Shown: positions 14,941 through 36,669 of the stretch, one piece after another
Layout: each line of letters begins with the position of its first letter
How positions within the stretch are numbered: position 1 is the stretch's first letter
DNA from: a phage
Length of the DNA stretch: 64,000 nucleotides
Assembly: GCA_037574385.1 (NCBI GenBank)
Contig: GCA_037574385.1_4529.1
Strand: one strand, 5' to 3'
Position numbers and translations under genes: made by a program
Notes under the pieces: model-generated
Databases searched by the model: none
What the model saw: the letters and a program-made list of their open reading frames with translations, nothing else
Told to the model about the DNA's origin: nothing

Positions 14941-15016
14941 CTCTTTTTTTCGTAAAATGCTTTAATTTTTTATGTGTTATAATGGTTCTGAGTTCCATCC
15001 GGTTATTCCAATCCAG

Positions 15017-32941: not shown

Positions 32942-35653
32942 TCAAAAATCGAACATATCGAACAGAGATGCTTTCTTCTCGTAATCGAGTTTCGCTGCTG
33001 ATGTGAATCCTTCAAGTGGTTTAATAAATGTCTTCTCAAGGAGAACCGTGTAGTCCATCCAATGAAGTACGTCGTCTTTAATTAAATCTGTGATTTCAGT
33101 ACCAGAAGGCCATGCGATACATTTATCACCGAATGGGTTTCCTTCACGTAAAGGCAGAACATATACTTTTTCACCTTCTACAACTTGTGGTGCATCAATA
33201 TTACCTTTGATAGCCCGGTTATACGTTAGAATTCCACGAATATGGAACGGGCATTTGGGACCCGGGAATCCACCTACATCATATTTAGCAATGTTATTCG
33301 CAGAAGATACCGACGCGATGCTAATATAATTCAATTGACGGAATTCTTTTTCAAACTCTTTAAAATACTCTTGTAATGATTCTTCACCTTCCTGAAGCAT
33401 ACGACGAATACATTCCTTAAGAGCTTTCTGTACCGCTTTAGGAGTTGAAGATTTCTGTGTTTCGAGACCCATGATTTTGAGTTTAGGCTTAGCGTAACGA
33501 GTACCTTCCATATCCCACACGTTTAATGCATAACGTTTCTTACCAGTCCAAAATCCGCCAATACCTTTAGAACCGAGCGGAGGACCAGCGATAGCTTCTC
33601 GGTCCATGAACATCAAATGTTGCTTATTATTCATGTATTCGCACATTTCACGGAAACCTCTATCAATAGCAGGTTCCATACGTTCACGAGCGAACTTATC
33701 TAAGAAGTCTACCCAATGGTTGGTATCACGGAATTTAGATTCACCAACCTTATCAATAATTTTATCTGCAGATACATAAATGGAGTCTGTATCACCGTAT
33801 AGAACGAAAGCTTCACCTTCTGTACCACAAACTTCGTTCAGATATTCATTAACTTTACGTTCAATCCACTGTAAAGCCATTTGCCCGAATGTTGTGATTG
33901 CAGTAGCATTACGCAAATCATAATAACGGAACCAAACGTTGCCAAGTGCACCATAAAGTGAGTTGATAAGCAATTTACGGTTAATCTGTGCAGTCATACC
34001 TGCAACTTCAGTACGTTGAGCTCTAAACAACATTTCATTAAGAGATTTAGCAGACAACTTTTTAATCTTTTCTTTAATCTCGTCAGTGAAGTCGAAACGA
34101 TAATCAACATCTAATGGTTCGTCAACAGAAAGATTAGGATTATGCAATGCCTCTTTAATTATTTCACCATTACGTTGAGCTGCAAGCATGTAACCTTTAT
34201 GTTCTTTACGCTGATTAAAGACCTTAGTGATTTCAGTTGGAACTACACCATCACGGTCTTTATAATACATCATGCCATTAGGAGAGCAACTGTACACATC
34301 TGAAGGACGTTCAGCAACAGCGTTAATATAATCATGTAATGGAGCTACTTTAAACGTTCCTGCTATTGTTTCTGGGCTAATATTCACTTGGCGAATAATA
34401 CTTGGATACAGAGATGTAAGGTCGAAACTCATTACATATTTGTATCGATTTGGAATAGGTTCCTTAACAAAAGCGCCTGGGTAAGGTTGAACCGGGTGAG
34501 AACGACCTTGTGGAATCACCTTGTTCTGCTCTTTAAGGCTATTAAAAATAATAGCATCCCATGTTTTAATTGGGCTAAACACAGATTGAATCTGTATCTT
34601 AGCATAATAACCCATGTCCAAACTCAAGTTGATGAACTGACGCTTAGCATCAATTTGCAATACACGATACACGTCGATAATGTTATAAGAAATATATCGT
34701 TGGTGATTGCTTTCACGAAGCTTAGAAATAGGGCCGTCATATTTCAGTTTACCAACGTTCAATTCAAATTCTGAAATGTAATCCAGAGAATACGACGGTT
34801 GATTGGTAAAAGAGAATTTTTTGTAAAGGTCAATGTAATCAAGAACAGAGATACCGAACAATGTAATGATTTCACGAGAACCATACATGTTTTCGATAAC
34901 TTTAACATGAGTTTTACGATGTGGTGATAAACGTTTCGCAGTAGATTCGCCAAAAATATTCTTGATTCGGTTATACACATATGGAATATCAAATGACTCA
35001 ACGTTCCATCCGGTTAAAATGACAGGAGTTTTCTGTTGCCAGAAGTTGAGATATTCCATCAACAATTCTTTTTCGTTATCGAACGGCATATAAATGATTT
35101 TATCAATAATTTCGGATGGAACTTCATCACCACCTTGTTCTTGAAGCTTAGCAGCGATTTCAATAGACCATTCTTCTACATTACCATATGGAGAATTCAA
35201 TAGATCAAATACGTAAAACCTGTCGTCAATTGAGTCATAATGAGTGATAGCATCAATCGGATGTTTTGCTTGTGACGGCTCAGGGAACCCATCCGGAGAT
35301 GTTACTTCGATGTCGAAGTTAGCCACACGAATTTTTGTATGGTCGTATTTGATTTCATAGTTATAAGTGTCAGACAAATACGCCAATTTGAAATCGTCCA
35401 TGCCAAGTGCTTCAAGTCCGATATCTTCCATGCGTTTAATCCATTGGGAGGCATCACGCATATTAGCGAACAACTTACGAGTACACGACTTACCGTAGAT
35501 ATCGAAATATTTCGTAGCCTGACTTTCTGGACAATGAGCAAACAGTGATGGTTTATATTCTACTTCACGAGTACGTTCACGGCCATTAGAATCGATGTAA
35601 CGTTCAAAAATTGAATCACCGATCTGTTCAACCGTTAAGTAAAATTCTTTCAT
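32942..35653 (-). CDS. 43: DNA polymerase (family B, gp43)
   Basis: 903 aa; exonuclease FDIEVTS and polymerase YGDTDS motifs; length and N-terminus match recalled RB69 gp43. Confidence 0.95.
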   Translation of the reverse strand: MKEFYLTVEQIGDSIFERYIDSNGRERTREVEYKPSLFAHCPESQATKYFDIYGKSCTRKLFANMRDASQWIKRMEDIGLEALGMDDFKLAYLSDTYNYEIKYDHTKIRVANFDIEVTSPDGFPEPSQAKHPIDAITHYDSIDDRFYVFDLLNSPYGNVEEWSIEIAAKLQEQGGDEVPSEIIDKIIYMPFDNEKELLMEYLNFWQQKTPVILTGWNVESFDIPYVYNRIKNIFGESTAKRLSPHRKTHVKVIENMYGSREIITLFGISVLDYIDLYKKFSFTNQPSYSLDYISEFELNVGKLKYDGPISKLRESNHQRYISYNIIDVYRVLQIDAKRQFINLSLDMGYYAKIQIQSVFSPIKTWDAIIFNSLKEQNKVIPQGRSHPVQPYPGAFVKEPIPNRYKYVMSFDLTSLYPSIIRQVNISPETIAGTFKVAPLHDYINAVAERPSDVYSCSPNGMMYYKDRDGVVPTEITKVFNQRKEHKGYMLAAQRNGEIIKEALHNPNLSVDEPLDVDYRFDFTDEIKEKIKKLSAKSLNEMLFRAQRTEVAGMTAQINRKLLINSLYGALGNVWFRYYDLRNATAITTFGQMALQWIERKVNEYLNEVCGTEGEAFVLYGDTDSIYVSADKIIDKVGESKFRDTNHWVDFLDKFARERMEPAIDRGFREMCEYMNNKQHLMFMDREAIAGPPLGSKGIGGFWTGKKRYALNVWDMEGTRYAKPKLKIMGLETQKSSTPKAVQKALKECIRRMLQEGEESLQEYFKEFEKEFRQLNYISIASVSSANNIAKYDVGGFPGPKCPFHIRGILTYNRAIKGNIDAPQVVEGEKVYVLPLREGNPFGDKCIAWPSGTEITDLIKDDVLHWMDYTVLLEKTFIKPLEGFTSAAKLDYEKKASLFDMFDF

Positions 35654-35712
35654 TTAATTTCCTTTAGACGAGTTATTGTCTTTTGTTTGTTGATGAACTT
35701 ATTATACTCCAA

Positions 35713-35730
35713 ATGGGACCGAAGTCCCAT
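35713..35730 (-). other. stem-loop in regA-43 intergenic region (candidate RNA operator/attenuator)
   Basis: ATGGGAC-TTCG-GTCCCAT perfect 7-bp stem just after regA stop and just upstream of a TATAAT element; no U-run. Confidence 0.4.
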
Positions 35731-35734
35731 TGCT

Positions 35735-36103
35735 TTAATTACCAATTGTATATTTTGCTTTCAAAGTCCAGTCATCTTTCTGTTTAAAAGAGATAACTCG
35801 GAAGTTATTAGTCAGGCTAAATAGATCTTCACGAGCAGAGTCTTCAATAACAATCAATCCCCAGTCTTCAAGCAACTGAGCAATCGAATCACGTCGCTGA
35901 TAGTCTTCGCCGTCAATATCAACCTGGCGTCCATCCATACGCAACATTTCTTTAAAGTGGACAATATAGTACTTACCTTGCTTTTGGAGGATATGACAAG
36001 ACTGGTAAAGGACTTTATCTTTGTTATTAGCGATGCCCATACGGGTCAAAGTCTCTTTGACTTTCAGAAAATCTTCAGGGTTCTTCAATTTAATTTCAAT
36101 CAT
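35735..36103 (-). CDS. regA: RegA translational repressor
   Basis: Track ORF trimmed to ATG (MIEIKLK...) giving 122 aa; near-identical to recalled T4 RegA. Confidence 0.9.
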   Translation of the reverse strand: MIEIKLKNPEDFLKVKETLTRMGIANNKDKVLYQSCHILQKQGKYYIVHFKEMLRMDGRQVDIDGEDYQRRDSIAQLLEDWGLIVIEDSAREDLFSLTNNFRVISFKQKDDWTLKAKYTIGN

Positions 36104-36105
36104 TT

Positions 36106-36669
36106 TTACCATTCCAATGCTAATTTTTTAAATTGTTTTTGTTCTTTCACGTTTTTGGTAACTTCTTTGAGAAATTCATCAGTGACCATGGCCTTCAGTT
36201 CTTTAAGGACTATTGGCAACTTGTTATTTTTTTCAAGGAGCCGCTTATACTCGGTAGCATCATTCATGTTGATTGTGTAATGTTTCATCAACAGTTTGAT
36301 AACTAGTAACTCTGAAGTGTCTTCGACTAGTTTAGCCCATTTAGAGAATCGACGACCACGCGGAATTGCCGCCATCATATAGTTGAAGTGCGCTTCATCA
36401 CTTAATTCAGAACCGACTAAGTTCATCATGTAAACGGCTGGCATACATTCTGGGAACTGGGATAATGAGTTCTCAACCATAAATTTTGAGTAGTCGACCT
36501 GAGCAATTGACATAGATTTCTTTTCGTTAATAGCATTAATGATTTTAAAGAATTCATTCTCAGGTTTTTCTTTAAACATATCAGCACATTTTTGAATCGC
36601 ATCAGCGTCATTAGACTTCCATGCAATTTGGTGCTCGTTAAGCTGGACGTCATCATCGAATAAGTTCAT
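36106..36669 (-). CDS. 62: clamp loader small subunit gp62
   Basis: 187 aa; N-terminal and C-terminal stretches ([14 protein letters not shown]) match recalled T4 gp62. Confidence 0.9.

Follow-up and report, generated by a model that had tools for sequence, protein, structure and literature searches.

Layout of the regA-43 junction

On the minus strand of the window (i.e., the whole 64,000-nt stretch of phage DNA analyzed here), regA is followed by the DNA polymerase gene 43, and the two are separated by a spacer of 81 nt. The segment on which the original prediction was centered (35653-35735) is this spacer plus one base on each side. Its features are listed in Table 1. The 121 bases at 35640-35760 are 100% identical to positions 33337-33457 of phage RB69 (NC_004928.1), and 151 phage records are at least 99% identical to them. 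The T4 sequence has the same layout (i.e., stop codon, C(UUCG)G hairpin, GGAGTATAAT, and operator). On the basis of sequence identity, the junction is the RB69 copy of the control region mapped in T4, and as such is already known and ordinary. Very probably, the spacer of this RB69-type phage consists of three stacked control elements, all of which are known from T4 and RB69. It carries little weight as a discovery, since the T4 junction (promoter P43, a hairpin of the CUUCGG class, and the operator of gp43) is one of the best studied in phage regulation. The use is mainly in annotation, in which the -10 hexamer and the predicted start at ~35695 delimit the leader of gene 43.

Table 1. Positions of genes and sequence elements at the regA-43 junction
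Feature	Position	Strand	Basis or remark
regA	35735..36112	minus	ORF; Pfam Translat_reg, E 5e-60
regA stop codon TAA	35737-35735	minus	ORF end
8-bp hairpin AAUGGGAC-UUCG-GUCCCAUU, C(UUCG)G tetraloop (loop, 35723-35720)	35731-35712	minus	Sequence, folding, covariation
Expected position of a MotA box (-35 to -26), reads TGGGACTTCG	35720..35729	minus	Counted from TATAAT
GGAG directly upstream of the -10; candidate RegB cleavage motif in read-through RNA	35710-35707	minus	Alignment A1
-10 hexamer TATAAT of the gene 43 middle promoter (P43 homologue)	35706-35701	minus	Conservation, T4 start alignment
Gene 43 mRNA start, predicted	35694..35696	minus	Position relative to the T4 start as listed
gp43 operator hairpin AGAC-AAUAACUC-GUCU, 16 nt	35681-35666	minus	RB69 identity, covariation
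gp43 Shine-Dalgarno AAGGA	35664-35660	minus	Sequence
gp43 start codon ATG	35653-35651	minus	ORF 32942..35653
Family-B DNA polymerase (gp43), 903 aa	32942..35653	minus	ORF
Middle-promoter pattern match ATTGCTTTA, 11 nt, TATATT	35729-35754	plus	By-product, probably not a promoter

Middle promoter and translational operator of gene 43

The hairpin had been described as fused to a -10-like element about 50 nt before the polymerase ATG. GGAG and TATAAT do directly follow it, and TATAAT ends 47 nt upstream of the ATG. The hexamer is an excellent sigma-70 -10 element (four of its six bases are invariant and two are at least 90% conserved among 21 relatives), and its counterpart in the alignment with T4 is the -10 of P43, a mapped middle promoter. 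According to the T4 promoter listing in PMC2988021 (after Guild 1988 and Hsu & Karam 1990), P43 starts at T4 coordinate 29933, which is position 734 of the T4 locus in our comparison (L003), 5 nt downstream of the aligned T4 hexamer. As judged from this alignment with the listed start, the -10-like element of the window is the -10 of a P43 homologue. T4 P43, which depends on MotA and AsiA, occupies the same place between regA and gene 43, has the same GGAGTATAAT, and has no -35 element; there, too, a C(UUCG)G hairpin overlaps the -30 region and the operator hairpin comes shortly after the start of the leader. The spacer between the -10 and the operator is 12 nt longer in the window than in T4.

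Relative to the start listed for T4, transcription in this phage would begin ~5 to 7 nt after TATAAT, ~14 nt upstream of the operator. Since such a start lies downstream of the UUCG hairpin, the mRNA that gene 43 makes from its own promoter would not contain this hairpin. The suggestion that the hairpin is present only in RNA reading through from regA would follow from the same T4-based start. A sigma-70 -35 element is not present (TGGGAC matches at 2 of 6 positions), and the site was not listed in a sigma-70 scan of the gene strand; a sigma-70 early promoter at TATAAT was rejected for lack of a -35. In the T4 promoter description given in PMC2988021, the -35 is replaced by a MotA box, (a/t)(a/t)(a/t)TGCTTtA, centered at -30 and 12 +/- 1 bp from the -10. 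The core of the sequence found at this place in the window (A-31 C-30 T-29 T-28 of TGGGACTTCG) comes from the closing pair and the loop of the hairpin. The resulting ACTT(C) core is at the canonical MotA position with a 13-bp spacing, while only ~4 to 5 of the 10 positions match the consensus as described there; the same source gives an ACTT variant as the MotA box of T4 P46. The P43 homologue would overlap the hairpin, the top of which would fill the place of the MotA box while its loop provides the ACTT(C) core.

The overlap differs in detail among the phages. The CTT core of the window is at the canonical -30 to -28, within ACTT, whereas T4 has a GCTT core located 2 bp further upstream, which is too far for a MotA box. 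CTT is missing at -30 from some relatives (GAAA or UACG loops), and relatives whose hairpin is 14 to 21 nt away from the -10 have a separate and clearer box (TGCTAT or ACTTTA) at 11 to 12 bp from this hexamer. The strict pattern (i.e., MotA box plus -10) is enriched on the gene strand of the window (seven occurrences versus 0.5 expected), so middle promoters are in use in this phage. In T4 infected cells with a motA-amber mutant, RNA-seq revealed that the region containing genes 45, 44/62, and 43 was strongly MotA dependent (PMC6024815). For the present phage, we infer the MotA dependence of the promoter, the exact start, and the termination or stabilization by the hairpin.

The original prediction also implied a link between the UUCG hairpin and translational control by gp43 or RegA. 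This link is not supported, as the operator is a separate, covarying hairpin that the prediction did not mention. The review PMC3014915 describes the RB69 gp43 operator as a hairpin of 16 bases that has a -UAAC- loop and adjoins the ribosome binding site, and the autogenous operators of T4 and RB69 were the subject of earlier studies (Pavlov & Karam 1994; Petrov & Karam 2002; reviewed in PMC3014915). The second hairpin of the spacer has 100% identity with the known RB69 operator over 16 nt, with an 8-nt, UAAC-containing loop (AAUAACUC) that is contiguous with the gene 43 ribosome binding site and adjoins the Shine-Dalgarno sequence. It is predicted in the minimum free energy (MFE) structure, and among 15 homologues its loop (AAUnACU) is invariant while four of the five stem pairs change on both sides. 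By these sequence features, the hairpin at 35681-35666 is the RB69 gp43 operator itself, and the operator annotation belongs there. Free polymerase would bind it together with the adjacent ribosome binding site and so repress its own translation. The flagged UUCG hairpin is not the operator: it has another loop and a variable sequence, and it lies 58 nt before the ATG, with 30 nt, GGAG and the -10 among them, between it and the operator. It also lies upstream of both the -10 and the T4-based predicted start, which would place it outside the mRNA from the gene's own promoter.

The UUCG hairpin downstream of regA

The perfect 7-bp hairpin reported after the regA stop codon (ATGGGAC-TTCG-GTCCCAT) is present. 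It extends to 8 bp (DNA arms, AATGGGAC and GTCCCATT) with five G-C pairs and begins 3 nt past the stop codon. The hairpin appears in both the MFE and the centroid structures (ViennaRNA) and has a folding energy of -11.1 kcal/mol by itself. A MAFFT alignment of the whole spacer (A1) set some hairpins out of register, so loop-centered segments of equal length were used instead. Counted in these alignments, which are anchored on the structure and therefore biased toward pairing, 99.3% of the cells are paired across 21 distinct homologues (slid controls, 20 to 71%), and six of the seven pairs show changes on both sides (0 of 500 shuffles). The T4 stem differs from that of the window by a compensatory A-U to G-C change. 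Despite the structure-anchored alignment, the predicted hairpin is still supported by the slid controls and by the number of pairs with two-sided changes.

The loops of the relatives (i.e., UUCG, UACG, UCCG, GAAA, and UUAC) are mostly extra-stable RNA tetraloops, and UUCG is retained even where the hairpin is not at -30. In all relatives, the hairpin is directly 3' of a stop codon; it may lie 14 to 21 nt from the -10, and its distance to the operator varies. Because the pairing is kept by two-sided changes and most of the loops are stable RNA tetraloops, the hairpin very probably acts in RNA. The relatives provide a clean example of compensatory change preserving a hairpin while an overlaid promoter sits at a variable distance. 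A scan of 35300-36200 against Rfam (E up to 10) returned only chance matches; as all of them are far below the gathering scores, neither the UUCG nor the operator hairpin has an Rfam family.

An action in RNA could mean that the hairpin is a regulatory target in regA read-through transcripts (i.e., a part or accessory of the gp43 operator or a RegA site), which we consider extremely improbable. Read-through RNA would carry the hairpin upstream of the operator, and the hairpin is conserved and covarying. However, the operator is a different hairpin that has an invariant AAUnACU loop and is next to the Shine-Dalgarno sequence, whereas the stem sequence and even the loop of the UUCG hairpin vary freely among the relatives, unlike a sequence-specific protein site. 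Further points against a regulatory target are the variable distance between the hairpin and the operator (the hairpin can be 14 to 21 nt further from the -10), the nature of RegA sites, which are unstructured, A+U-rich, and located at the AUG (review PMC3014915), and the occurrence of five similar hairpins 3' of other genes in the window.

These hairpins form a class. GC-rich perfect hairpins of at least 7 bp make up 27 entries in the window versus 3.8 +/- 2.0 in dinucleotide shuffles. Six of the hairpins in the window have a UUCG loop, all on the gene (mRNA-sense) strand, and five of the six C(UUCG)G hairpins are at most 7 nt from a stop codon. Tuerk and colleagues reportedly described such C(UUCG)G hairpins in the intercistronic regions of T4 in 1988. 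The GGAC(UUCG)GUCC core is the classic model hairpin of structural studies of the UUCG tetraloop. With its GC-rich Watson-Crick stem (GGGAC-UUCG-GUCCC), C-G closing pair, sense-strand orientation, and position directly after a stop codon, the regA-43 hairpin has the loop and the setting of the T4 intercistronic class, from which it shows no difference of substance; it is an ordinary member.

The UUCG hairpin is most likely a weak terminator or a 3'-end cap or stabilizer of regA transcripts. It would form at the end of transcripts entering from the upstream genes (45-44-62-regA), ending some of them as a weak intrinsic terminator or attenuator and shielding their 3' end from exonucleases, and would partly insulate gene 43 from upstream transcription. 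A GC-rich stem-loop just 3' of a stop codon is what intrinsic terminators have in common with this site, and in relatives 4 to 5 U directly follow the stem. The U tract of intrinsic terminators is, however, not matched in this phage: the run of U after the stem is three long (AUUUGGAG), and the tail, taken as AUUUGGAG or UGGAGUAU, lacks the minimum of 5 T in 8 set by the rule for such tracts. Its score (-2.8/-2.4) is near background, in which 27% of the positions reach -2.5. We propose a weak terminator because the U run is short. A simple terminator scan of the gene strand did not call the hairpin, and Nolan et al. 2006 list a TransTerm terminator 3' of regA in RB43 alone and none in RB69. 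Given the weak U tail and the absence of a call by these two predictors, termination may be inefficient or absent; the terminator is probably leaky in this phage. Most relatives have a run of 3 to 5 U after the stem, and in several of them the tail is U rich, with scores of -4.0 to -4.65. In the GenBank record of SA79RD, the same bases carry two annotations: a rho-independent terminator, on the basis of WebGeSTer/TransTermHP predictions, and a T4-middle-like promoter that has one mismatch. Termination sites within this gene cluster of T4 are named in the title of Hsu & Karam 1990, and a literature search for genome-wide maps of T4 transcript ends yielded no usable T4 data set.

The same inverted repeat might instead matter mainly in DNA, either as the architecture of a MotA-box-bearing promoter or as the boundary of a PeSL-type recombination cassette. 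In the PeSL cassettes of RB49 and phi1 (PMC2839356), a stop codon, a GGG...CCC stem-loop, and a promoter are likewise combined in one short intergenic cassette, and here, too, the cassette adjoins a slot where small ORFs come and go. Among the relatives, the slot immediately 5' of the hairpin holds at least three unrelated families of small ORFs and one HNH-like ORF, and scar-like spacers and a deleted copy are also seen. Arbiol et al. 2010 (PMC2839356) reported PeSL-like sequences from JS98, RB43, and Aeh1, in the plastic region around gene 43. For the promoter variant, the hairpin top is exactly at -35 to -26 and ACTT at the canonical core position of the T4 MotA box as described in PMC2988021. 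A role mainly in DNA is nevertheless improbable, since the compensatory changes keep the pairing and not the sequence, the loops are stable tetraloops of the RNA type, UUCG persists where a separate MotA box exists, and hairpins with GAAA or UACG loops occur without CTT at -30. A PeSL requires a strong sigma-70 early promoter with a -35, whereas the regA-43 site has no -35 and the homologous T4 promoter is of the middle class. A cassette boundary of the PeSL type would let small ORFs be gained or lost between regA and gene 43. A role at the DNA level is compatible with an RNA role of the hairpin.

Motifs overlaid on the hairpin

A MotA-box-like TTGCTTTA with no obvious gene had been noted on the plus strand. 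The motif is present (35730-35737, followed by an 11-nt spacer and TATATT at 35749-35754), and no conserved plus-strand ORF lies downstream; its reading as a MotA box, however, is not supported, since it is a by-product of the stop codon and the stem and its -10 is not conserved. TTGCTTTA is the reverse complement of the regA stop codon, GC, and the A-U base of the stem. Its -10 likewise comes from the opposite strand of regA codons (Lys-Tyr-Thr, reverse complement), and a -10 at a usable spacing exists only where these codons supply it. It is hardly conceivable that ATTGCTTTA, 11 nt, and TATATT constitute a functional MotA-dependent promoter of RNA antisense to regA. The box agrees perfectly with the MotA consensus, has an allowed spacing and a TAnnnT -10, and is itself kept in the T4, RB69, JS98, and VR7 groups. 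The spacing in T4, however, is 10, many relatives and all loci that carry an inserted ORF have a degenerate -10 (GTGTAT or GTGTAC) or none, and the T4 middle-promoter table published in PMC2988021, as far as available, contains no such promoter. The plus strand has two strict matches to the pattern versus ~0.6 expected. The bare heptamer is 3- to 4-fold over-represented on both strands, so that about two strict matches per strand are to be expected, and the motif is compatible with chance. An antisense promoter was rejected because the -10 and the spacing are not conserved among the relatives. An antisense gene was also rejected, as a long open stretch on the plus strand is confined to the RB69 group and the stretch matches no PHROG. 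The plus-strand motif is probably not a promoter and should not be marked as one.

The GGAG between the hairpin and the -10 raises the question of RegB. A cut at this site in read-through RNA would produce a hairpin-capped regA mRNA and a freed gene 43 mRNA, which would account for the stimulation of gp43 synthesis by RegB processing (review PMC3014915). Most relatives have GGAG or GGAU at this spot, and GGAGUAUAAUA matches five of the seven trailing positions of the strong-site consensus (GG*AGRAYARAA; PMC3014915). Against a RegB site, several relatives have GUAG, AGAG, GGGG, or UGGG in place of GGAG, most GGAG-bearing middle transcripts escape cleavage (PMC3014915), and the literature searched contains no statement of a RegB cut upstream of gene 43; the bases may also be conserved for promoter reasons. 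RegB cleavage at this site is unlikely.

A coupled dual reading of the same bases (i.e., a CUUCGG loop in RNA that is also the MotA-box core in DNA, with GGAG as a RegB site) is improbable. If true, termination, RegB processing, and MotA activation would be coupled in one 30-nt cassette, which would set how much polymerase mRNA carries the upstream hairpin. The variable loops of the relatives speak against a strict dual code.

The regA-43 junction and its T4 counterpart

The genes around the regA-43 spacer lie on the minus strand, with the clamp-loader genes 62 and 44 upstream of regA (see the table). On the gene strand, the 81-nt spacer reads 5'-TAA-AGC-AATGGGAC-TTCG-GTCCCATT-TGGAG-TATAAT-AAGTTCATCAACAAACAAA-AGAC-AATAACTC-GTCT-AA-AGGA-AATTAA-ATG. 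Window positions 35640-35760 are 100% identical to positions 33337-33457 of RB69 (NC_004928.1), and 151 phage records match this stretch at ≥99%, the closest belonging to the genus Mosigvirus. The T4 spacer has the same layout (i.e., TAA-GC-AAGGGGC-TTCG-GCCCCTT-ATTTGGAG-TATAAT-ATATCAAG-AGCCT-AATAACTC-GGGCT-...-ATG). SA79RD, a close relative, has the same bases annotated in GenBank both as a rho-independent terminator and as a T4-middle-like promoter. The structure in the spacer is real, conserved, and nonrandom, and the original prediction read the sequence correctly. It is not novel: the UUCG hairpin, TATAAT, and operator are the RB69 version of a T4 junction mapped before, the three known parts of which are a regA-distal CUUCGG hairpin, the MotA-dependent middle promoter of gene 43 (P43), and the operator hairpin through which the DNA polymerase gp43 represses its own translation.

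Mechanical calling places the RegA start at window positions 36104-36112 (minus strand; 125 amino acids [aa], MVKMIEIK...), so that the ORF overlaps gene 62 at its end; the RB69 RefSeq entry does the same. The start lies three codons later (MIEI..., 122 aa) in the SA79RD record and in T4.

Features of the regA-43 junction and related motifs in the window
Feature	Position	Strand	Remark
RegA	35735..36112	minus	Pfam Translat_reg, E 5e-60
Family-B DNA polymerase, 903 aa	32942..35653	minus	ORF
UUCG hairpin, 8 bp, perfect	35731-35712	minus	starts 3 nt past the regA stop; GGAG and TATAAT next
-10 hexamer TATAAT	35706-35701	minus	directly after GGAG
gp43 operator hairpin AGAC-AAUAACUC-GUCU	35681-35666	minus	matches RB69 operator description; identical to RB69
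Strict middle-promoter matches, seven	42482-42456, 39648-39622, 32688-32663, 32139-32113, 26964-26938, 16962-16936, 8364-8338	minus	strict pattern (see text)
Strict middle-promoter match	14956-14983	plus	strict pattern (see text)
Other perfect C(UUCG)G hairpins, five	6499-6482, 17394-17373, 23290-23269, 25045-25026, 57074-57057	minus
Middle-promoter-like match ATTGCTTTA, 11 nt, TATATT	35729-35754	plus	formal pattern match
Stop-free stretch antisense to regA and gene 62	35825-36280	plus	listed ORF 35957..36280, 107 aa, GTG start

A conserved RNA hairpin behind regA

The perfect hairpin predicted right after the regA stop codon and before the -10 is present, and its stem reaches 8 bp; both it and the operator hairpin appear in the minimum-energy and centroid folds. 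From 80 loci collected through RegA, with the regA-to-43 interval taken where both genes could be located, a loop-centred alignment of 21 distinct hairpins was built. This structure-anchored alignment is biased towards structure, but the compensatory change is nonetheless large, with stem pairing kept in 99.3% of the cells and changes on both sides at six of seven stem pairs (variants include GGGAC/GTCCC, GGGGC/GCCCC, GGGAG/CTCCC, GGAGCC/GGCTCC, and AAGGCC/GGCCTT). None of 500 shuffles equaled the observed covariation score, and sliding the partner strand reduced pairing to 20 to 71%. The loops among the relatives are UUCG, UACG, UCCG, GAAA, and UUAC. UUCG is retained also in hairpins away from -30, and GAAA and UACG loops occur in hairpins at -30, so selection acts on a stable RNA hairpin and not on a MotA-box sequence. 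In all cases, the hairpin lies directly 3' of a stop codon, either that of regA or the one ending a small inserted ORF.

GC-rich perfect hairpins are enriched about sevenfold in the window (27 versus 3.8 ± 2.0). UUCG is the loop of six of them, which all lie on the gene strand; five of these six (four of the five outside the regA-43 spacer) begin no more than 7 nt from a stop codon. C(UUCG)G hairpins between T4 genes were reportedly described as a class by Tuerk et al. in 1988, and the UUCG hairpins of the window belong to it. With its T8 tail, the hairpin at 17394-17373 makes a strong terminator candidate, and that at 25045-25026 apparently lies within a possible 113-aa ORF.

Several relatives have four to five U residues after the regA-43 stem and score -4.0 to -4.65 for the tail, at or below the 1st percentile of the background (-4.10). 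The window stem is followed by AUUU only and scores -2.8, and a score of -2.5 is reached by 27% of window positions. The hairpin was not called by a simple terminator scan of the gene strand, and the RB69 hairpin is absent from the TransTerm listing of 2006 (Nolan et al. 2006). Given the short tail, the near-background score, and its absence from both the scan and the listing, the hairpin would be a leaky terminator at best in the window phage; it likely also caps the 3' end of regA-containing RNA.

Promoter, candidate RegB motif, and operator downstream of the hairpin

The "-10-like element" of the original prediction proved to be real. The P43 start has been mapped at T4 coordinate 29933, according to a review of T4 prereplicative transcription (PMC2988021, citing Guild et al. 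1988; Hsu & Karam 1990). In the T4 locus, the aligned TATAAT sits 5 nt upstream of this base, which identifies the hexamer as the -10 of the gene 43 promoter already known. Since the start is downstream of the hairpin, the hairpin should occur only in read-through RNA, as had been proposed. RNA sequencing of a motA-amber T4 infection revealed a strong MotA dependence of the region with genes 45, 44/62, and 43 (PMC6024815).

The window site lacks a usable -35: TGGGAC is the hexamer found 17 bp before the -10, and the site is omitted by a sigma-70 scan of the gene strand. Counted from TATAAT, positions -35 to -26 (i.e., the place of a MotA box at 13-bp spacing) read TGGGACTTCG and match the full MotA-box consensus poorly; the hairpin's loop and closing pair provide the core A-31 C-30 T-29 T-28, which is similar to the ACTT box of T4 P46 given in the same review (PMC2988021). 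Relatives with the hairpin 14 to 21 nt from the -10 carry a separate TGCTAT(T/C) or TTTACTTTA box, 11 to 12 bp from the -10. TATAAT and the operator loop are the best-conserved spacer parts in the alignment of relatives. Use of middle promoters by the window phage is clear: seven matches to the strict pattern (wwTGCTT[TC]A, 11 to 13 nt, TAnnnT) lie on the gene strand versus ~0.5 expected from shuffles, which makes these matches candidate MotA-dependent promoters.

GGAG or GGAU directly precedes the -10 in most relatives, and several relatives lack the motif. RegB cuts GG*AG, preferably with RAYARAA after it, and stimulates gp43 synthesis (PMC3014915). The window sequence GGAG-UAUAAUA matches RAYARAA at five of seven positions. 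RegB may possibly cut read-through RNA there; a literature search found no report of a cut at this place.

The RB69 operator is a 16-base hairpin with -UAAC- in its loop, and the operator reaches over the ribosome binding site (PMC3014915); the second hairpin of the window spacer fits this description exactly. The loop AAUnACU does not vary among 15 distinct homologues, and both sides change at four of five stem pairs. The UUCG hairpin, upstream of the promoter start and variable in sequence, is unrelated to this separate operator, and the implied tie to gp43 or RegA binding is not supported.

Plus-strand motif and small ORFs

The proposed plus-strand "MotA box" and its -10 formally match a middle promoter, but we judge them a by-product. 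In reverse complement, the box reads TAA, AGC, and AA, which come from the stop codon, a two-base linker, and the A-U base of the stem, and its -10 is the reverse complement of the Lys-Tyr-Thr codons of regA. The box-to--10 spacing is 10 in T4, several relatives have GTGTAT or GTGTAC as the -10, and no -10 comes after the box in any inserted-ORF locus examined. A plus-strand middle promoter was rejected because neither the -10 nor its spacing is kept in relatives. The bare heptamer is over-represented 3 to 4 times relative to shuffles on both strands, and the shuffle expectation of 0.6 is therefore too low as a background. No conserved plus-strand ORF lies downstream of the motif among the loci compared. 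Antisense to regA and gene 62, the stretch free of stop codons reaches 151 to 181 codons only in the RB69 group (151 in the window and 181 in RB69) and elsewhere mostly 51 to 89 (T4, JS98, and most other groups), with 105 to 127 in L021-L023; no PHROG family matches it, and its length is probably due to chance.

In many T4-like relatives, a small ORF (38 to 79 aa) lies between regA and the hairpin/P43 cassette, with its start overlapping the regA stop (TAATATG); it is absent from the window (35712-35737), RB69, and T4. Such ORFs are listed for loci L007-L009, L011-L017, L021, L022, L025, L033, L037, L039-L044, and L069, and they represent three or more unrelated PHROG families without known function (phrog_3826, 19562, and 24729). 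The copy in L012 is internally deleted, the short spacers of L010, L026, and L030 resemble scars, and L027 carries in this slot a 238-aa ORF with an HNH-like motif.
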